Below, one piece after another: positions 1,646 through 10,346 of a stretch of 59,711 nucleotides of DNA. Every line of letters begins with the position of its first letter. Within the stretch, counting starts at the first letter, position 1. Where the stretch lies: NCBI GenBank assembly GCA_044345395.1, contig JBIJBD010000001.1:1-59711 (forward strand), in the 5' to 3' direction. This stretch comes from Crocinitomicaceae bacterium. Its GTDB lineage: Bacteria > Bacteroidota > Bacteroidia > Flavobacteriales_D > Crocinitomicaceae. Made by a program: the position numbers and the translations under genes. The notes under the pieces were generated by a model. That model saw only the letters and a list, made by a program, of their open reading frames with translations. It ran no database searches and was not told where the DNA came from.

Positions 1646-1691
1646 TGAGGGCTGGAAGCACTGACCGAAACGAAGTGGAGCGTCATGTGGT

Positions 1692-1755
1692 GAGGTTTAA
1701 GACTGAGGTTTGAGGTTTGAGATTGAGGGTTAAGACTGAGGGTTGAGGGTTAAGT
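1692..1755. repeat. Degenerate short-unit array (TGAGGTT / TGAGGGT / TAAGAC units) abutting the 3' end of the RhuM-like gene
   Basis: Read directly: gaggtttaagactgaggtttgaggtttgagattgagggttaagactgagggttgagggttaag. It contains a 31-nt block (1711-1741) identical to 2631-2661. Confidence 0.8.
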
Positions 1756-2583
1756 ATTCAGTTTCTTTACTATCAATTGTGGCTCGATAGATAGTTTAGA
1801 AAAGGCAAACCATTTTTTTCCTAAGTCTTTCAACGATGCCCCAATGTGATAAATATCCAAATCATCAATTATTAGGAATCGATCGTGAGCTTTACCGAAA
1901 GAGATCACTTCAATGGGTTCATATTGCTCATTAAATTTCTGAAGATCCAATTCTAATTGCTTCCTTATTTTTTGCGTAAATATCTGAGCCTTTACACCTC
2001 TTTTTCTTTTTGATAAGATTAATAATACATCTTCGTTCACGTAATTGTCAATCAAAACAAGTGAATGATTTGCTTTGCGAACGATACCCGAAACAAAATG
2101 AAATGCATCAAATATTTGTCCATCAAAAAAAATTCCTTCCTTGGGAGGAAGCGTTGTTTGAATTAGCGTTTCCAGTAATTGACCTTGTTGTACTACTTGC
2201 TTTTCGATTTTTTCCACTCTTTGCTGAATGGCATAGCCTTTAAGCAGGTAATCGCGGAGTACCTTTGTTGCCCAAATTCTAAATTGAGTTCCACGCTTAG
2301 ATTTTATTCTGTATCCAACGGAAATAATAACATCGAGATTGTAGTAGGCAGTGTTGTATTTTTTTCCATCCGCCGCAGTTGTCAAGGAATACTTGACTGC
2401 TGAAGTTTTTTCTAATTCCTTTTCTTTGAAAATATTATTGATGTGCAAACTGATATTTTGCTTAGTTGAGTTGAAAAGTTCCAGTATCTGCGCCTGCGTA
2501 AGCCATACAGACTCATCTTCCACTCTTACTTCAATAAAAAGGTCAGATTGGCTATCTGGCAGGTAAGTAATTAGCTCGTGCAT
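1750..2583 (-). CDS. RhuM-family protein (function unknown)
   Basis: 277-aa ORF. The core YYNLDVIISVGYRIKSKRGTQFRIWATKVLRDYLLKGY and the C-terminal HDRFLIID..YHIGASLKDLGKKWFAF block match my recollection of RhuM-family proteins. Confidence 0.7.
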   Translation of the reverse strand: MHELITYLPDSQSDLFIEVRVEDESVWLTQAQILELFNSTKQNISLHINNIFKEKELEKTSAVKYSLTTAADGKKYNTAYYNLDVIISVGYRIKSKRGTQFRIWATKVLRDYLLKGYAIQQRVEKIEKQVVQQGQLLETLIQTTLPPKEGIFFDGQIFDAFHFVSGIVRKANHSLVLIDNYVNEDVLLILSKRKRGVKAQIFTQKIRKQLELDLQKFNEQYEPIEVISFGKAHDRFLIIDDLDIYHIGASLKDLGKKWFAFSKLSIEPQLIVKKLNT

Positions 2584-2587
2584 AGGT

Positions 2588-2700
2588 GGGCTGAGGGTTG
2601 AGACTAAAGTTTGAGGCTGAGGGTTGAGACTGAGGTTTGAGATTGAGGGTTAAGACTGAGGTTTGAGGTATAGGGTTAAGGGTTAAGTCTGAGGGTTAAT
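2588..2700. repeat. Degenerate short-unit array (GAGGKTT/AAGACT units) directly upstream of the RhuM-like start codon
   Basis: Read directly: gggctgagggttgagactaaagtttgaggctgagggttgagactgaggtttgagattgagggttaagactgaggtttgaggtatagggttaagggttaagtctgagggttaat. It shares the 31-nt block with 1711-1741. Confidence 0.8.
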
Positions 2701-2763
2701 GTATAATTGAAAATGTAAAATCGAAAATGTGTTTTATTAGGTGATTCAAAAGTTAAAAAATAT

Positions 2764-3981
2764 TTACAGCGTATCTAATTGTAAAAATTTAGATAAATGT
2801 AATACAGATACGCCATTGTAAGAAGTGCCAGAATAATTATCGAGGGTTACCACAATTTTAGGGTAATTGTCTTTTACTTTCAATAAATTACCAAACTCTC
2901 TTTCAATGGTATTTTGTTCTTTAAGTGTAAGAGCAACTTGTATATATGTTATTTCGCTATTTTTTTTCGCTACAAAGTCGATTTCATGTGCTCCCCAAAC
3001 TCCAACAGTAACATCGAAATTTAAATAAAGTAGGTGATTGTAAACAATATTTTCAATTATTTTACCTCTATCTTCTAGTCGATACCCCCATATAGCGTTT
3101 CTTATTCCTAAATTTTCAAAGTAATATTTTTCACCTATTTCAAACAAACGCTTTCCTTGAATATTGTATCTGTTGCACCCTAAAATAATAAAGGCATTTG
3201 TAAGGTGACTGATATAGCTTTGTACTTGGTTTGGCGCCATATTTATCTTTTGCGCCTTCAGAAAGTCACTAATACTTTTAGCTGAAAACAAACTACCTGT
3301 ATTAGAGCTTAAAAACAATACTAATTTTTCTAAAAAACTCGAATTTCTTATATTAAATCTGTTTACTACGTCTCGATAAATTATGGTGCTATAAATATTT
3401 TTTAAATATTCGAAAACAATATCATCTTCAAGTGGTAAGTGTTTTAAATAAGGTAATCCACCAAATTTAATGTATTTTTCAAGCGCATCTTCACTTGCTG
3501 TTAGTGAATGAAATTCTAAGAATTCTAAGAAAGATAAACTGTAAACGACTTGTTCAATATATCGCCCGCTCAAATTTCCAGCTATATCACTTGATAGTAA
3601 ATTTGCATTACTGCCCGTACAATAAATATCTAATTTTTCATTGAGCAGAAGAGATCGAAGTGCTATGTGAAAATCTTCAATATCCTGAATTTCATCAATA
3701 AACAAATAAGTCATGCCTGTTTTGGCACTATTTAGAGACACATATTCATTTAGGTCTTTTGCATTTTTGATGTTTGCATAGGCCAAATCTTCTTTATTAA
3801 TGTATATTATTCGCGGATTTTCTTTTGTTTTTTGAATATGCTGAATTAGCTGATATAGCAGATAACTTTTACCAACCCTTCGCTGACCTACCAATACTTT
3901 TATAACCTGTTTGTCAATAAAAGGCTCTAAGGCATTGAGATATCTGTTTCGATGAATTATATGACTTGGAACACCTGTCAA
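2764..3981 (-). CDS. AAA+ ATPase, DUF4143-type ATP-binding protein
   Basis: 405-aa ORF with Walker A GQRRVGKS and Walker B LFIDEIQ, and the long C-terminal region typical of the AAA_14/DUF4143 architecture. Confidence 0.8.
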   Translation of the reverse strand: MTGVPSHIIHRNRYLNALEPFIDKQVIKVLVGQRRVGKSYLLYQLIQHIQKTKENPRIIYINKEDLAYANIKNAKDLNEYVSLNSAKTGMTYLFIDEIQDIEDFHIALRSLLLNEKLDIYCTGSNANLLSSDIAGNLSGRYIEQVVYSLSFLEFLEFHSLTASEDALEKYIKFGGLPYLKHLPLEDDIVFEYLKNIYSTIIYRDVVNRFNIRNSSFLEKLVLFLSSNTGSLFSAKSISDFLKAQKINMAPNQVQSYISHLTNAFIILGCNRYNIQGKRLFEIGEKYYFENLGIRNAIWGYRLEDRGKIIENIVYNHLLYLNFDVTVGVWGAHEIDFVAKKNSEITYIQVALTLKEQNTIEREFGNLLKVKDNYPKIVVTLDNYSGTSYNGVSVLHLSKFLQLDTL

Positions 3982-4084
3982 TTTCTATAGTTTAAATTAT
4001 AGTAATATTAGTTTTACTACAAAGTTATAATTATAATTATATGTTTTGATTGTTTAATGAAAGGGTTGTTTTTTGTGTTGTACA

Positions 4085-4112
4085 TTCTAAATTCTAAATT
4101 CTTAATTCTTTA
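4085..4112. repeat. Four TTCTWWA heptads overlapping the stop codon of the ABC-2 permease gene
   Basis: ttctaaa ttctaaa ttcttaa ttcttta read in 7-nt register. Positions 4085-4097 are the exact reverse complement of 4957-4969. Confidence 0.7.
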
Positions 4113-4955
4113 AACAGTGTCCATAAAACTTTTCTCGACTTGATTAAATATAATTATTCCTAAAAACAAGACGCCGAAACTAAAAATGCTGGTGTATGCT
4201 AAGCCGCTCCAATCGAAAGATCCGATGCTGAAAAAGGCATAGCGGAAACTTTCCATAATGGGCGTAAGTGGGTTCATACTGATAATCGTATGTAATTTTC
4301 CTCCGGTGTAGCTCAAGGGGTAAATGATGGGCGTTGCGTACATTAAGAGTTGAATTCCAAAGGTTAATAAGAAACTCAAATCGCGGTATTTGGTGGTGAG
4401 TGCAGAGAAGATTATTCCTAGGCCTAGTCCCATAACTGCCATCAAGAGAATCAAATATGGAAGAATTAAAATGTGCATATTCACGTTTACTTGGATGTCT
4501 TTGGTAAAGATTTGATAAACCATTATTGCCAAGAACAGCAAAACCTGTATACCTAACTTAATGAGGTTCGAGATCACAATTGAAATCGGTGTTGCCAAGC
4601 GTGGGAAGTACACTTTTCCGAAAATACCGGCATTCGCTACAAAAGTATTGGAGGTTTTGTTGAAGCAATCGGAGAAGTAGTTCCAAAGCGTAATTCCAGA
4701 TAGGTAGAACAAAATCGGATCAATGTTATCGGTTGGAATCTTTGCAATTTGGTTAAAAACGAAGAAAAAGGTTAGTGTCGTAAACAAGGGCTGAATGAAT
4801 AACCAAATCGGTCCGAGAATCGTTTGTTTGTATTGAGAAACAAAATCACGTCGAACAAACAACATAATCAAATCGCGGTAACGCCACAACTCTTTAAGGT
4901 TGATGTCGAGCAAGGAACGCTTCGGGGATATTATTTCGGTCCAGGAGTCTTTCAT
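4110..4955 (-). CDS. ABC-2 type polysaccharide/O-antigen export permease (Wzm/KpsM/TagG-like)
   Basis: 281-aa ORF with about 6 hydrophobic segments. N-terminal LWRYRDLIMLFVRRDFVSQYKQTILGPIW is the usual ABC-2 permease signature. Confidence 0.85.
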   Translation of the reverse strand: MKDSWTEIISPKRSLLDINLKELWRYRDLIMLFVRRDFVSQYKQTILGPIWLFIQPLFTTLTFFFVFNQIAKIPTDNIDPILFYLSGITLWNYFSDCFNKTSNTFVANAGIFGKVYFPRLATPISIVISNLIKLGIQVLLFLAIMVYQIFTKDIQVNVNMHILILPYLILLMAVMGLGLGIIFSALTTKYRDLSFLLTFGIQLLMYATPIIYPLSYTGGKLHTIISMNPLTPIMESFRYAFFSIGSFDWSGLAYTSIFSFGVLFLGIIIFNQVEKSFMDTV

Positions 4956-4957
4956 TT

Positions 4958-5041
4958 TAGAATTTAGAAGTGAGAATTATGAAGTTAGAGGTTAGAAATT
5001 AGAAGTTTGAAGTTTGAAATTAGAATTTTGAAATTAGGAGG
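4958..5041. repeat. 12 tandem degenerate heptads (consensus TWGAAGT), C-free on the plus strand
   Basis: tagaatt tagaagt gagaatt atgaagt tagaggt tagaaat tagaagt ttgaagt ttgaaat tagaatt ttgaaat taggagg, counted base by base. No C occurs between 4954 and 5052. Confidence 0.9.
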
Positions 5042-5074
5042 GAAATATGGATCGTGTTAAAATTTAACTTTTTG

Positions 5075-5116
5075 CCTTCATCCTTCTACATTCTGCTCTT
5101 TAAATTCAGAATTCTA
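5075..5116. repeat. 6 heptads of the complementary type (nnTTCnn)
   Basis: ccttcat ccttcta cattctg ctcttta aattcag aattcta. The array overlaps the stop of the four-helix-bundle ORF. Confidence 0.7.
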
Positions 5117-5467
5117 ATTGGAGTTATTTAATCTTTTTTGCATTGTTTTTAAGGTTGAAACTGTAATTGCTGTGAGCTCATCTGCTTCTTTCAATAGATC
5201 ATCAACGTTTTTCCAATCTTTTCTTTTTATTATTTCCAACCAAAAGCAGCATTCGTCAATTTCTTCGAGAACAATATTCATTTTCGAAATAAATTCTCTA
5301 TCGCTCCTTCCTCTGCACGCAGCTCTGTAGTTTGCTCCGACAGATGTTGCAGAACGCGCAAGTTGATTGGTGACAATTTTCTTAGTTTGACTATATTCCA
5401 TTTCCTCCACCAAGTTTATCACTTGTATTCCAAATTCAAATGTGCGAGATTTTAGGTCTTTTTTCAA
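5114..5467 (-). CDS. Four-helix-bundle protein (23S rRNA intervening-sequence protein / DGR Avd-like family)
   Basis: 117-aa ORF. NQLARSATSVGANYRAACRGRSDREFISKMNIVLEEIDECCFWLEI matches the conserved core of this family. The only start codon at the 5' end is TTG (5467-5465), and the first in-frame ATG is codon 23. Confidence 0.8.
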   Translation of the reverse strand: MKKDLKSRTFEFGIQVINLVEEMEYSQTKKIVTNQLARSATSVGANYRAACRGRSDREFISKMNIVLEEIDECCFWLEIIKRKDWKNVDDLLKEADELTAITVSTLKTMQKRLNNSN

Positions 5468-5468
5468 A

Positions 5469-5531
5469 ATGAAGGTAGAAGTTTGAAGGTTGAATTTAGA
5501 ATTTTGATTTTAGAAGTTAGAGATTTGAAGC
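5469..5531. repeat. 9 tandem degenerate heptads (TWGAAGK)
   Basis: atgaagg tagaagt ttgaagg ttgaatt tagaatt ttgattt tagaagt tagagat ttgaagc. The plus strand is C-free over 5466-5530. Confidence 0.9.
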
Positions 5532-5540
5532 GTGACGGAT

Positions 5541-5603
5541 TTCTGCATTCATCTTTCTAAATTCTGACTTCTGCATTCATCCTTCTGGATTCTAAATTCT
5601 AAT
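5541..5603. repeat. 9 tandem heptads of the complementary type (TTCTNNA)
   Basis: ttctgca ttcatct ttctaaa ttctgac ttctgca ttcatcc ttctgga ttctaaa ttctaat. It lies 9 nt from the 5469-5531 array and overlaps the cysC stop codon. Confidence 0.9.
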
Positions 5604-6167
5604 CAACTCCTCCGCAATCCTTATCACACATTCATTTACATCGAATTGAGAACTGTTTACTCGAAATGCTTCTGCTGTTGGGGCTTCAAACGGGTCTGAA
5701 ATCCCAGTAAAGTTTGAGATTTCTCCCGCACGTGCTTTTTTGTAAAGTCCTTTTGGGTCGCGTTGTTCGCAGGTAGCTAAATCGCATTCCACGTAAACGT
5801 CTAATAATCTTTCGTTTTTCAAAATTTCTTTGACTAGTGAGCGCTGTTCTTCGTACGGTGTAATCAAGGAAACCAAGACAATCATTCCCGCATCCGACAT
5901 CAACTTGGCAACTTCAGCAACACGCCGAACGTTTTCCAAACGATCCACAGAAGAAAAACCTAAATCTTTGTTCAATCCTAATCGCGTGTTGTCGCCATCC
6001 AAGCAATAGGTGTGGTTGCCCATTTCAAACAATCTTTTCTCCAAAGCATTGGCAATCGTGGATTTACCAGATCCTGATAATCCGTACAACCAAACCACAG
6101 CAGATTCATGGCCGTTGTGTGCAGTTCGATGCGCTTTAGTTATCGTGAAATTTTGCCTTGGTTGCAC
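5592..6167 (-). CDS. cysC: Adenylyl-sulfate (APS) kinase
   Basis: 191-aa ORF with P-loop GLSGSGKST and the DGDNTRLGLNKDLGFS motif. Confidence 0.9.
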   Translation of the reverse strand: MQPRQNFTITKAHRTAHNGHESAVVWLYGLSGSGKSTIANALEKRLFEMGNHTYCLDGDNTRLGLNKDLGFSSVDRLENVRRVAEVAKLMSDAGMIVLVSLITPYEEQRSLVKEILKNERLLDVYVECDLATCEQRDPKGLYKKARAGEISNFTGISDPFEAPTAEAFRVNSSQFDVNECVIRIAEELIRI

Positions 6168-6259: not shown

Positions 6260-6790
6260 TTAATTCTTGCTCCAGAGCAGTAAAATCGGTTCTTCGTGTT
6301 GTAGTTTATAGTTTTCTAGCTCAACTTGATTCATTACGAGGTAACGAATTTTTCGTTGCACTAAATCTTCTGCTTTTTCAATTAATTCTGTTAAATACGC
6401 TTTGTCCACTTTCCCAACGAGGATAACATCGATGATTCCCGAGTCGCGCCCTTTTGCGTAATCGCCTATCAAATAAGCGTTTTCCACATCCCCTAAGCGT
6501 TGAATCACCCACTCGATGATGGAATCCAAGCCTGTCATTTTCGAAACGATGCTTCTAATTTCAGGAAATAAGGGGTGAGACTGCTTTGCTTTATACTTCA
6601 CCACGTTGCCAACAGCTTCACTTTCAAGGATTCCGGCTTCGGTCAAACGGTTCAATTCCACTCGAACGGCATTGGTACTTTCCCCAAATTCATCGGCTAA
6701 TTGACGCAAATAGGCTTTCATCGTTGGATTAAGAAAAAACTTCACCAACAGCCGAATTCTTGTTTTTGATGTGATCAGCGCGTCTAACAT
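6260..6790 (-). CDS. Winged-helix (ArsR-like) regulator fused to a minimal nucleotidyltransferase-like domain
   Basis: 176-aa ORF. N-terminal LRQLADEFGESTNAVRVELNRLTEAGIL looks like a wHTH. C-terminal LIGDYAKGRDSGIIDVILVG resembles the MNT/pol-beta NTase glycine-Asp segment. Confidence 0.55.
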   Translation of the reverse strand: MLDALITSKTRIRLLVKFFLNPTMKAYLRQLADEFGESTNAVRVELNRLTEAGILESEAVGNVVKYKAKQSHPLFPEIRSIVSKMTGLDSIIEWVIQRLGDVENAYLIGDYAKGRDSGIIDVILVGKVDKAYLTELIEKAEDLVQRKIRYLVMNQVELENYKLQHEEPILLLWSKN

Positions 6791-6975: not shown

Positions 6976-7066
6976 GGAGAGGTGTCCGAGTGGTTGAAGG
7001 AGCACGCCTGGAAAGTGTGTATAGGCCTAAAGCTTATCGAGGGTTCGAATCCCTCTCTCTCCGCCA
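6976..7066 (+). tRNA. tRNA-Ser (anticodon GGA), CCA encoded
   Basis: Hand-folded cloverleaf. Acceptor GGAGAGG/TCTCTCC, anticodon stem CACGC/GTGTG with loop CTGGAAA, long variable arm, T arm GAGGG-TTCGAAT-CCCTC, discriminator G then CCA. Confidence 0.9.
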
Positions 7067-7077
7067 AGTCCACTAAA

Positions 7078-7102
7078 AGCTAGCTGTTAGGCTGGCTTTT
7101 TT
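7078..7102 (+). terminator. Intrinsic terminator after tRNA-Ser
   Basis: 7-bp stem AGCTAGC/GCTGGCT (one G-T pair) with a 6-nt loop, followed by TTTTTT. Confidence 0.55.
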
Positions 7103-7257
7103 GTTTAAAGCGCGTCGAAAGCTTGCTTAAGTAAGTTTTGAAAAACAAAAAAGGCTTAAAGTTGCGAAGCTGTTTGACTTTACGTGGACTCGAAGCTAAA
7201 CCCATTTGGGCTCACGAGCGCAGCGAGTAATCCCATATTTCCTTTTGCCCTTCCACT

Positions 7258-7462
7258 CTGACGGAGTTTAATACTCATCAGAGTCCTTTCTTCCTCCCTT
7301 TGAGGGAGGACCGAGGAGGGTGACAATCTAGAAGTTAGAAATAATTTCACCTCTACCTGACGGAATTTAATACTCGTCAGAGTCCTCATCCCCCTCGATC
7401 CCCCTTCGAAGGGGGAGGTGTTTTTTCTTCCTCCCTTTGAGGGAGGACCGAGGAGGGTCACA
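7258..7462. repeat. Composite GC-rich palindromic repeat cluster (R1-R2-heptads-R1-palindrome-R2)
   Basis: R1 is 30 nt: 7258-7287 and 7357-7386 (ctgacggaRtttaatactcRtcagagtcct, 2 mismatches). R2 is 38 nt: 7288-7325 and 7425-7462 (ttcttcctccctttgagggaggaccgaggagggtSaca, 1 mismatch, hairpin CCTCCC/GGGAGG). There is a 16-nt perfect palindrome cccccttcgaaggggg at 7400-7415, and heptads tagaagt tagaaat at 7329-7342. Confidence 0.85.
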
Positions 7463-7480
7463 AAGAAGTAGTAGACATAT

Positions 7481-7513
7481 TCAATACAAAAACCCAAACA
7501 ACCAAAGCGGTAT
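7481..7513. repeat. 33-bp direct repeat, copy 1 (last 10 codons plus stop of the ATPase gene)
   Basis: tcaatacaaaaacccaaacaaccaaagcggtat, with 32/33 identity to 8887-8919. Confidence 0.85.
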
Positions 7514-8674
7514 TTTTTCCTGAAAGCCAATTTCGATGTCGTCTGCGGCGATAAAAGCGTTTTGTAATTCTTTAATCTGATCTTTGGATTTGTGTTTTCC
7601 TCCAATTTCAAATGTGAGTTCACGGTTGATTTTGAAATCGCCAACATCTGTGTATTCAACCAAATGTTTGTGAGCGAGTTGATTTGCAAAAAACGTTTCT
7701 CTAACATGACCAATTTGTACATTTTGCGGCGCAATAGTATGGAGTAAATTAGTATTATCTAGGTATAACTTATCAGGTTTTTGCAAGCGCGTGATTCCTT
7801 TCGCATCTTTGAAAAGTTGCATGGTTAACCCACTTTCTTCCAAATAGTGGAAATAGGAAATCAATGTATTCCGATTGATTCCAATGCGTTCGGCTAACTT
7901 TGTTACATTCGGTTTAAAAGGAACAGAAGAGGAAATAACCAACAACAATTGTTTTAATTTTATGATATACGAAGGATCTACTTGACGCAAAGTAGGTAAT
8001 TCAATTTCCAAAATAAAATTCACAATTTCTTCCAAACGTTGATCATAGGTGTTCGGATTCTCACGAAAAAAAGGATAATAACCTGTTTTAAGGTATTGAG
8101 AAAAATATTTAATGGGTTGGATTTTCTGAACAATTTCTGAAGCGATATCTAAGTGGTTCTCGATGATTTCATTTAGCATCAGTGAACTGAATATAAAACC
8201 ATGTTCTAAATTGAGGTATTCTCTAAATGAAAGTCCTTGCATGGAATACATAACTGCTCTTCTACTCAAATCAGCCCGCGCATTTAAAATCTCCAGTAAC
8301 GATGACCCTGTAAATACAATTTGTACTTCCGGAAAGTCGTCGTAAATATTCTTCAATTCTTGTGCCCAATTAGGATATTTGTGAATTTCATCGATGAATA
8401 ATTTCTTCCCTCCACGTTTCACGAAATCGTCTACAAAATCAACTAGGTTTTGTGAGCTGAACCATATGTTGTCGAGTGAAATGTACAATGCGGATTCGTC
8501 ATTAGCGTGATTTACTTTCAAGTATTGTAGTAAAATGGTTGTTTTACCAATTCCCCGTGGTCCACGAAGTCCAATTAACCGATCTGTCCAGTCTATTTCA
8601 GAGAAAATATTTCTTGTAAAGTTTACTTGAATTGAAGCTAATTTTTTCCGATATCGTTCAACTAAAATTTCCAT
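7481..8674 (-). CDS. AAA+ ATPase, DUF4143-type ATP-binding protein (second, diverged copy)
   Basis: 397-aa ORF with Walker A GPRGIGKTT and Walker B LFIDEIHK, and the same architecture as 2764-3981. Confidence 0.8.
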   Translation of the reverse strand: MEILVERYRKKLASIQVNFTRNIFSEIDWTDRLIGLRGPRGIGKTTILLQYLKVNHANDESALYISLDNIWFSSQNLVDFVDDFVKRGGKKLFIDEIHKYPNWAQELKNIYDDFPEVQIVFTGSSLLEILNARADLSRRAVMYSMQGLSFREYLNLEHGFIFSSLMLNEIIENHLDIASEIVQKIQPIKYFSQYLKTGYYPFFRENPNTYDQRLEEIVNFILEIELPTLRQVDPSYIIKLKQLLLVISSSVPFKPNVTKLAERIGINRNTLISYFHYLEESGLTMQLFKDAKGITRLQKPDKLYLDNTNLLHTIAPQNVQIGHVRETFFANQLAHKHLVEYTDVGDFKINRELTFEIGGKHKSKDQIKELQNAFIAADDIEIGFQEKIPLWLFGFLY

Positions 8675-9953: not shown

Positions 9954-10346
9954 ATGAAAAAATTAGCATTTATCTTCTTGTTTGGTTTGTTTGCCTTTTC
10001 TCTATCGGCACAACGTCTTATGAATGGTTCCAGAAGCACCGTTGGGTATATTGAAAATGGCCGTGTGATGAACAGCTCCCGAAGTACCATTGGATACATC
10101 GACGGAGAACGTATAATGAATAGCTCAAGAAGTACCATCGGCTATTTTGATGGAGAACGCGTAATGAACAGCTCCCGAAGCACAATCGGATACATTGACG
10201 GGGATCGCGTGATGAATGGATCGAGAAGTACTATAGGTTATGTAGACGGAGAACGTGTAATGAATGGCTCAAGAAGTACTATTGGTTACACTGACGGAAT
10301 ACGTCGTAGTGAAGCCGCCCTATTTTTCTTCTTTTTCTTCTATTAA
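9954..10346 (+). CDS. Secreted repeat protein, six tandem 16-aa repeats (RVMNxSRSTIGYIDGE)
   Basis: 130-aa ORF with signal peptide MKKLAFIFLFGLFAFSLSAQ, then 6 near-identical 16-residue repeats and a hydrophobic tail ALFFFFFFY. Confidence 0.6.
   Translation: MKKLAFIFLFGLFAFSLSAQRLMNGSRSTVGYIENGRVMNSSRSTIGYIDGERIMNSSRSTIGYFDGERVMNSSRSTIGYIDGDRVMNGSRSTIGYVDGERVMNGSRSTIGYTDGIRRSEAALFFFFFFY
10014..10301 (+). repeat. 6 x 48-bp in-frame tandem repeat inside the CDS
   Basis: Units begin cgtcttatgaat, cgtgtgatgaac, cgtataatgaat, cgcgtaatgaac, cgcgtgatgaat and cgtgtaatgaat. Differences are mostly at third codon positions. Confidence 0.85.

Follow-up and report, generated by a model that had tools for sequence, protein, structure and literature searches.

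Why should a gene for a small four-helix-bundle (4HB) protein, of the family known from intervening sequences (IVS) of ribosomal RNA (rRNA), stand between inverted arrays of degenerate heptanucleotides in an operon that encodes proteins? This question was raised by a stretch of 59.7 kb (59,711 nucleotides, hereafter the window) from contig JBIJBD010000001.1 of a Crocinitomicaceae bacterium. All coordinates given below are window positions, and L-numbers denote loci or contigs fetched for comparison. The host is a polysaccharide-export operon, read in gene sense on the minus strand as cysC, the 4HB gene and wzm. The reading preferred here, to which a probability of roughly 55% is given, is that the 646-bp interval would be an accessory cistron inserted in the cysC|wzm spacer, the counterpart in an mRNA operon of the rRNA IVS that bear a 4HB gene.

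The 4HB gene and the heptad arrays around it

An earlier reading made from the letters and open reading frames (ORFs) of the window, referred to below as the sequence-only reading, had assigned the 117-aa product of the gene to the four-helix-bundle family. This assignment was confirmed by matches above the cut-offs to PF05635 (E=1.3e-13, 51.5 bits, cut-off 33.8) and to TIGR02436 ('four helix bundle protein', 81.3 bits, cut-off 24). The conserved G..R...S...N..E motif region described for the PF05635 family (PMC3936711) was present in the protein, and residues S42, V43, G44, A45, N46, R48, R52, R54, S55 and E58 were invariant in an alignment of 36 sequences. A total of 7476 homologues were retrieved at E<=1e-3, and PDB entry 2RLD, which holds five chains, was matched with E=5e-16. 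The same fold and Pfam family are also those of Avd, the accessory protein of diversity-generating retroelements (DGRs), a pentamer that binds nucleic acid and reverse transcriptase. The absence of a reverse transcriptase from the window had been stated earlier and held, as a scan of the 48 window ORFs with 100 aa or more detected no such domain (no search was made for a template/variable repeat pair); therefore, the 4HB protein of the window is not taken for a DGR Avd.

The arrays, the spacers between them and the ORF with its TTG start were all recovered by Tandem Repeats Finder (TRF), ORF calling and hidden Markov model (HMM) matches at the positions listed in Table 1. TRF reported a period-7 array at 4957-5037 (11.6 copies, 76% matches), another at 5470-5530 (8.7 copies) and an array of period 28/14 at 5541-5600, and the array at 5075-5116 was weaker (CCTTCAT CCTTCTA CATTCTG CTCTTTA AATTCAG AATTCTA). 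The arrays reach into the genes: the cysC stop codon (5592-5594) lies within an array, the TAG stops of cysC and of the 4HB gene each belong to the first heptad of the next arm, and the wzm ATG occupies 4953-4955. The two outer arrays were found to be inverted with respect to each other, as had been noticed before, positions 4957-5020 and 5539-5602 being 72% complementary over 64 nt with the outermost 13 nt exactly so. Nevertheless, the four arrays are best taken, from their order and polarity, as two local hairpins (G-arm, loop, C-arm), one per intercistronic spacer, and not solely as one long-range pair. Imperfect predicted hairpins in intercistronic spacers, one on each side of the 4HB gene, were shown in this way for the lineage of the window.

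Such arrays are not generic spacer DNA of this genome stretch. When the whole window was scanned by lag-7 autocorrelation, the segments 1686-1771, 2587-2732, 4062-4125, 4942-5044, 5057-5116 and 5463-5604 were flagged and, weakly, an AT-rich segment near 42.0 kb; nothing in the window was flagged at lags 5 and 8, and lags 6 and 9-11 gave a few unrelated stretches. The remaining ~54 kb, occupied by housekeeping genes (leuS, infB, nusA, cytochrome oxidase, alternative complex III, icd, photolyases and others), contained no such heptad arrays in its spacers. No Rfam family covered the heptad arrays of the window, and terminator and promoter scans of the arms found nothing.

In the folding comparison with dinucleotide shuffles that had been proposed along with the sequence-only reading, an advantage was present for the region 4900-5650 (z = -2.8, with the outermost stem in the minimum-free-energy structure), but it was modest. 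The exact spacers gave z = -3.3 (cysC|4HB) and -2.4 (4HB|wzm), and with short flanks the values were -1.6 and -3.3. The folding advantage of the two window spacers is thus real and modest, and values down to -8.5 were reached by the spacers of a close homologous locus, L001.

Association of 4HB genes with heptad arrays across phyla

Close homologues of the gene, obtained by an exact-protein look-up, all carried arrays of the same kind (L001-L005). In L001 the 4HB protein was 82% identical and its gene was likewise found upstream of a wzm gene; in L002 and L003 (76% identical) it lay between two glycosyltransferase genes, and in L004 and L005 (69% identical) upstream of a helicase gene. In L001, the C-type arm upstream of the 4HB homologue was seen to be triplicated as a 98-bp unit (3720-3977), and the arms there are very long (spacer z = -5.8 and -8.5).

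The comparison was extended to 80 loci, each species with a 4HB alignment being represented by one genome; the phyla covered, more than a dozen, included Bacteroidota, Planctomycetota, Verrucomicrobiota, Acidobacteriota, Chloroflexota, Cyanobacteria, Nitrospirota, Desulfobacterota and Gemmatimonadota. A lag-7 array was detected within 300 bp upstream of the 4HB gene in 68 of the 80 loci and downstream in 70. The threshold was reached at lag 7 by 86% of the 158 flanks, and at any other lag within 4-12 by 3% at most. Array density amounted to 2.85 per kb within 300 bp of a 4HB gene, against 0.09-0.24 per kb beyond (the false-positive density, estimated from lags 6 and 8, was 0.03-0.05 per kb), and arrays on both sides were observed for just 39 of 833 other ORFs.

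The two flanks of a 4HB gene are related to each other. A median of 17 shared 7-mers was counted between the upstream flank and the reverse-complemented downstream flank, compared with 3 for unrelated loci. Taken as its reverse complement, the downstream array repeats the upstream one, with identical consensus heptads in 24 of 62 pairs and a difference of one base in 9 more. Polarity was fixed: the G-rich strand was on the upstream side in 58 of 62 loci, and on the downstream side the C-rich strand was found in 50 of 58. In most other phyla, as the survey showed, the 4HB gene sits directly between one G-arm and one C-arm. It was co-oriented with its upstream neighbour in 65 of 78 cases and with its downstream neighbour in 56 of 74, and the median gaps were 70-80 bp, so that the arrays fill the spacers. 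The co-occurrence of arrays and 4HB genes, suggested for checking together with the sequence-only reading, therefore held in one direction, from gene to array; as described below, most arrays occur without a 4HB gene.

The heptads differ by lineage (GAATGCG, GATTGCG, GATTGCA, GATTTCG, GATTTTG/A, GAATTTA, GAAATTA and others) around a common pattern, GAWTKYR, with frequencies of.84 for G,.95 for A and.75 for T, in genomes with GC contents from 0.30 to 0.68. A consensus containing GA was found in 114 of 137 arrays, compared with 38% of random heptads. The window heptads GAAGTTA, GAATTTA and GAAATTA conform to this pattern, and the comparison showed that the window arrays are members of a GA-anchored heptanucleotide class (GAWTKYR on one strand) with loci in more than a dozen phyla. 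Beside 4HB genes, run length peaked at 4-5 heptads (35 of 55 upstream, 44 of 59 downstream), a peak whose lower side is truncated by the detection threshold. Protein identity between 4HB genes with a shared heptad type was 61%, versus 55% for different types, across phyla at matched GC, and 64% versus 57% within phyla; these pairs are not independent, which inflates the p-values. The greater likeness of 4HB proteins that share a heptad type still indicates that gene and arms are inherited together. Heptad GC content was found to track genome GC content (r = 0.54).

The IVS-like character proposed in the sequence-only reading stands in so far as an ORF lies between complementary arms, both in the window and in the survey; it does not extend to an rRNA location, since no rRNA match was obtained anywhere in the window. 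In addition, a search for conserved 23S motifs near the surveyed 4HB genes returned two isolated single-motif matches, neither of them pointing to a 23S gene. Two further arrangements were noted among the loci fetched. A Verrucomicrobia genome carries two adjacent 4HB paralogues (L201, 8596-9034 and 9935-10371), each with its own heptad type (TAAGAGT-type and GGATTTT-type), and in a member of the Deferribacteres (L179, 10001-11511) a full 4HB gene is followed by three tandem 4HB-like fragments with CCAAAAT-type arrays between them.

Arrays were also sought independently of the gene. A metagenome scan for five consecutive GAWTKYR units returned at least 120 loci, and among the matches listed a 4HB gene was present within 200 bp in 3 of 120, as judged by our own HMM. 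This model missed at least one true PF05635 gene (L190), and the test was therefore repeated with Pfam: among the matches listed, the 65 ORFs adjoining the 95 arrays with enough flank included one PF05635 member. Hence ~1-3% of the GAWTKYR arrays in metagenomes, among the matches listed, adjoin a 4HB gene. The same listed arrays were mostly solo, intergenic, often began at a stop codon and occurred in either orientation, and about 1 in 8 formed a G..C hairpin. Arrays in the flanks of the 80 loci also bounded ordinary genes (argC, argB, dinB, thiF, yqeY). In viral contigs, 120 loci with five TWGAR units were examined and none had a 4HB gene, so that arrays of this sort do not look specific to 4HB genes. 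Many heptad arrays and hairpins with the motifs GACAATT, GAGCAGT and GAACATT were observed in viral-class contigs (L036, 506-1312; L117, 8030-8654; L052, L055 and L063), some of the viral-contig arrays bracketing phage scaffold and portal genes. The presence of arrays at ordinary and phage genes points to a broad intergenic phenomenon of which 4HB genes would be one very consistent tenant.

An explanation that starts from these regularities, possible although clearly short of even odds, is that the 4HB protein is the binding partner of the heptads, a pentamer reading ~5 GA-anchored heptads, and that the gene lies between inverted copies of its own sites. On this view, solo arrays would be additional sites belonging to a protein-repeat system that spans the genome and serves regulation, repeat maintenance or dispersal. 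Rings that read spaced elements are known, as the TRAP ring reads spaced triplets. Known too are repetitive extragenic palindromic (REP) sequences and bacterial interspersed mosaic elements, abundant intergenic palindromic repeats that form intercistronic hairpins and are insertion targets, and the REP-associated tyrosine transposase (RAYT) genes that are flanked by inverted REPs. The likeness to the 4HB case is that one small gene family is flanked by inverted repeat copies, and the asymmetry is of the same kind, ~85% of the 4HB genes having arrays and 1-3% of the arrays, among the matches listed, having a 4HB gene. In contrast to RAYTs, the 4HB protein has only its PF05635 match and no Y1-transposase or other known catalytic domain, and the repeats are tandem heptads, not a single palindrome.

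The binding-partner explanation is favored by a related heptad motif with its GA consensus in so many phyla despite the wide range of GC contents, by the sharp peak at 4-5 heptads beside 4HB genes, by the strict strand polarity and by a protein similarity that follows heptad type across phyla. The five chains of 2RLD and the homopentamer formed by a Xanthomonas homologue (PMC4990558) agree with it as well. It is weakened by the lack of a known catalytic motif in the family, by the length of the window's own arrays (6-12 heptads, not 5) and by a length peak that is partly set by the detection threshold. Moreover, the motif is loose, because heptad GC follows genome GC, and joint inheritance accounts equally well for the way in which protein and heptad vary together. 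The wider proposal, that PF05635 proteins and GAWTKYR arrays constitute one protein-repeat system in many phyla, with a pentamer bound to ~5 heptads and with hundreds of intergenic solo arrays and hairpins as further sites, is put forward as possible but rather unlikely, by analogy with the systems just named.

Insertion, selection and cargo exchange among related strains

Exact or near-exact matches of the window Wzm were abundant in freshwater metagenomes, a 92%-identical homologue is named Crocinitomicaceae, and the best genome match of the 4HB protein was Taishania. The insert was kept in four related contigs, in all of which the TTG start is conserved. L207 represents the same strain as the window (99.98% identity), and L331 is 97.7% identical with the same gene order; in L206 and L208 (87-94% nucleotide identity) the order cysC-4HB-wzm is kept and the arrays are longer. 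By contrast, in L332 and L333 (Wzm 95% identical) cysC is followed directly by wzm, with no 4HB gene and with spacers of 90 and 144 bp. This empty cysC|wzm site bears out the view of the sequence-only reading that a single gene was inserted in an mRNA operon. The spacer in L332 and L333 is itself a solo heptad hairpin (G-type arm, loop, C-type arm, then the ATG) made of heptad types (AATGTAG; AGTTAAG) unlike those of the window. In L334, L335 and L336 (92-93%) the order is cysC-cysD-cysN-wzm and the cysN|wzm junction has no array. A heptad hairpin at wzm|wzt was present in all five contigs from L332 to L336. By parsimony, the 4HB gene would have been inserted in the ancestor of the group formed by the window and L206.

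Compared with its homologue in L208, the 4HB gene showed 15 synonymous and 1 non-synonymous differences (dN/dS 0.01), and dN/dS versus L001 was 0.10. The codon comparison thus showed a gene inherited vertically since its insertion under strong purifying selection, as befits a functional gene.

The arrays change in length. Alignment of the window with L331 revealed, in the C-arm beside wzm, a clean indel of 28 nt (4 heptads), with identical 4HB genes in the two, which indicates that arrays alter by heptad-unit slippage faster than by point substitution. Shifts of array length by whole-heptad slippage were shown by this alignment. Another indel, of ~54 nt, was seen between the otherwise 99.98% identical sequences of the window (~2747-2758) and L207 (6437-6480), just past the ATPase stop and outside the heptad arrays.

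The same comparison bears on the idea that the interval is a unit transposon or an element similar to a miniature inverted-repeat transposable element (MITE), as had been considered in the sequence-only reading. The outer inverted arrays would then serve as terminal inverted repeats for a transposase or recombinase supplied from another locus, with all 646 bp moving together. The outer inverted repeat with its perfect ends, the presence/absence polymorphism at the site, the occurrence of close 4HB homologues in different gene contexts with arrays always present, and the joint inheritance of gene and heptad type would all agree with such a unit. However, the empty site is not clean, as it holds a heptad hairpin in L332 and L333, and the wzm|wzt spacers of insert-free relatives have hairpins of the same kind; a cassette with private termini is not what was found. 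No target-site duplication or direct repeat was detected at the insert ends (4956/5604), and the window ORFs scanned contained no transposase or integrase domain, the sole gene on the insert not being a transposase. Furthermore, the element is coding, with no recombinase nearby, its arm lengths vary between near-identical strains, it has two local hairpins instead of two simple termini, and arrays also flank other cargo and ordinary genes. This explanation is accordingly regarded as improbable.

It is likewise unlikely that the arrays are merely slippage-prone simple-sequence spacers, neutral or acting as expression-tuning contingency loci, with an incidental link to 4HB genes. Such a view would suit the whole-heptad indel between strains 97.7% identical, the surface-polysaccharide nature of the locus and the wide spread of solo arrays, and, in the summary that PMC4679880 gives of Mrazek 2007, no long simple repeats are commoner in many bacteria than heptanucleotide ones, for which polymerase slippage is held responsible, but it leaves unexplained the inverted pairing of the arms, the polarity in 58/62, the 20-fold local enrichment, the GA motif across phyla and the mode of 4-5 heptads, and the arrays are degenerate (68-76% matches), by which slippage would be damped.

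Other cargo was found at arrays of this locus (Table 1). The arms at 4084-4109 and 2698-2730 are homologous to both arms of the single wzm|wzt hairpin of L332, so that the ATPase gene of the window occupies the loop of this ancestral hairpin. In L206 and L208, AbiEi/AbiEii take the place of the ATPase and RhuM genes. Homology with the window breaks off at 4092, inside the array 4084-4109, and at 1632, which is 59 bp from the array 1691-1751 and just within the epimerase gene, and the breakpoints on the L206 side fall at array edges. In L206 the AbiE pair is preceded by a complete hairpin and has a weak hairpin behind it. The coincidence of arrays with breakpoints of accessory-cargo exchange between strains was shown by these alignments.

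The replacing segments (L206, 3053-4019; L208, 2265-3231) were seen to hold a 95-aa gene and an AbiEii gene, an abortive-infection or toxin-antitoxin pair, with heptad arrays at the bounds. The arrays around RhuM share one orientation (G-strand GAGGGTT GAGACT GAGGTTT GAGATT), whereas the arms that flank the 4HB gene are inverted and of TTAGAAG type. Another AAA_14 ATPase gene was observed at 7481-8674.

Table 1. Genes and heptad arrays of the cysC-wzm region and the adjoining cargo, in gene-sense order.
Feature	Position	Strand	Remarks
cysC (adenylyl-sulfate kinase; upstream host cistron)	5592..6167	(-)	APS_kinase E=8e-63
Upstream outer arm, G-type in gene sense (TTAGAAT TTAGAAT CCAGAAG GATGAAT ...)	5541..5603	(-)	begins within the last cysC codons + TAG
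Loop of the cysC|4HB hairpin, 9 nt	5532..5540	(-)	
Upstream inner arm, C-type in gene sense	5469..5531	(-)	pairs with 5541-5603; ends just before the 4HB TTG
4HB gene	5114..5467	(-)	117 aa, TTG start, TAG stop; PF05635 / TIGR02436
Downstream inner arm, G-type in gene sense	5075..5116	(-)	first heptad holds the 4HB stop codon
Loop of the 4HB|wzm hairpin, 33 nt	5042..5074	(-)	
Downstream outer arm, C-type in gene sense, 12 heptads	4957..5041	(-)	ends 1 nt before the wzm ATG
wzm-type ABC-2 permease gene (downstream host cistron)	4110..4955	(-)	domain matches
G-type arm directly after the wzm stop	4084..4109	(-)	homologous to the G-arm of the relatives' wzm|wzt hairpin
AAA_14/DUF4143 ATPase gene (second cargo)	2764..3981	(-)	within the ancestral wzm|wzt hairpin loop
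C-type arm, TTACATT-type in gene sense	2698..2730	(-)	homologous to the C-arm of the relatives' wzm|wzt hairpin
Second-family array (G-strand GAGGKTT / GAGACT, period 13 = 7+6), upstream of RhuM	2589..2706	(-)	
RhuM-family gene (third cargo)	1750..2583	(-)	flanked by direct arrays of the second family
Second-family array downstream of RhuM, next to the epimerase start (1645)	1691..1751	(-)	

The preferred reading and its relation to known systems

According to the preferred reading of an accessory cistron lodged in the cysC|wzm spacer, the 4HB gene would be co-transcribed with the operon, and in the resulting RNA its arms would form local hairpins and possibly an outer long-range stem. This folding may allow the insert to be tolerated by insulating or processing it, and a double-strand RNase, for instance RNase III, perhaps excises or stabilises the insert. 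The G-poor, A-rich C-arm tail, if unpaired, may serve as the leader of the next cistron. The cistron could be selfish or accessory, and cargo could be exchanged through recombination between arrays.

Several results weigh against this reading. The wzm|wzt spacers of L333 and L334 folded no better than shuffles, the z-scores are modest overall, and arm complementarity is only ~70%. The mismatches in the arms showed no excess of G-U over A-C (134 vs 164), giving no sign of pairing selected on the sense RNA, a lack of bias that favors the binding partner; the mirror order of heptad variants was weakly above permutation (17.2 vs 15.5). The GA-anchored motif and the mode of 4-5 heptads are not needed for a stem and point towards a putative protein-binding site. 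Most arrays are solo beside ordinary genes, in either orientation, and their existence is thus independent of 4HB genes. Finally, the direction of the event, insertion as opposed to loss, was inferred by parsimony from six relatives only.

The closest known counterparts are the rRNA IVS with a PF05635 ORF (Leptospira, Coxiella 23S helix 45; 16S and 23S rRNA in bacteria of the candidate phyla radiation, CPR). They share the protein family with the window, and in them too complementary arms enclose an ORF that is oriented as the host transcript and lodged at a hairpin within a transcribed unit. In Coxiella, the 4HB ORF lies within a 28-bp stem cut by RNase III (PMC4990558), and 4HB ORFs are described in 16S and 23S inserts of CPR bacteria, most of these inserts being located at stem-loops (bioRxiv 10.1101/2024.02.27.582315). 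The rRNA IVS is widely held to be a selfish insert of unknown mobility (PMC4990558). The window differs in its host, an mRNA operon spacer and not an rRNA helix, and in having two local hairpins. Its arms are degenerate heptads ~70% complementary, whereas the Coxiella stem is a near-perfect 28 bp, and strong purifying selection acts on its gene, in contrast to the decaying ORF of Coxiella. A gene of the PF05635 family was also noticed inside cas operons, e.g., between cmr3 and cmr2 (PMC3936711).

Tandem 7-nt units in spacers, as found in the window, are also known as intergenic heptanucleotide arrays: the cyanobacterial short tandemly repeated repetitive (STRR) sequences, long simple-sequence repeats and the TAACTGA repeats of Beggiatoaceae, Cyanobacteria and Bacteroidetes. 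These heptamer arrays often abut start or stop codons, are spread sporadically, have no known function and are suspected of a role in gene rearrangement (PMC4679880). The TAACTGA repeats have another motif than the GAWTKYR of the window, where the arrays form inverted pairs or hairpins, and the paper on them (PMC4679880) contains no occurrence of '23S', 'four helix' or 'intervening'. In architecture only, the locus resembles an integron cassette array, with promoterless co-oriented cistrons, imperfect inverted-repeat elements between them and cargo exchange from strain to strain. It differs in that the window ORFs scanned yielded no integrase domain (the attC consensus was not looked for) and in that the window arrays are tandem heptads.

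In the open literature, subscription journals and database family notes excluded, no work linking PF05635 genes with heptad repeats was found. Intergenic heptamer arrays and 4HB 'IVS proteins' are both known already, each by itself. Two features that have gone unexplained for about thirty years, the thousands of IVS four-helix-bundle proteins and the intergenic tandem heptanucleotide repeats, are linked here in ~85% of the 80 loci. Both questions become testable, through binding assays on a defined 35-nt target and at defined hairpins where RNA ends can be sought. The association suggests that the rRNA IVS may be a special case of a general habit of 4HB genes, that of settling in hairpins within transcribed DNA. 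In annotation, exchangeable cargo (4HB, AbiE, RhuM, DUF4143 ATPase) in otherwise conserved operons may be recognisable by such arrays. If the protein-repeat system proposed above were true, the 'IVS protein' family would have a function, and so would bacterial heptanucleotide repeats, among them the STRRs of cyanobacterial type.

Additionally, other features of the window were recorded. A tRNA-Ser(GGA) gene (6976-7066, plus strand) followed by a terminator-like hairpin (7075-7100, plus strand) lies between a minus-strand HTH gene (6260-6790) and an ATPase gene. A palindrome-rich element, ~90-120 nt long (ctgacgga.tttaatactc.tcagagtcc ... cctccctttgagggaggaccgaggagggt.acaa), occurs twice, at 7240-7330 and 7340-7460, under a spurious ORF (7180-7734); for this element Rfam gave only sub-threshold matches (whalefall-1, DUF1874 RNA). 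Tandem coding repeats of 48/96 nt were observed at 10062-10313 within the plus-strand ORF 9954-10346, which encodes a 5-fold beta-flower protein (PF21785).

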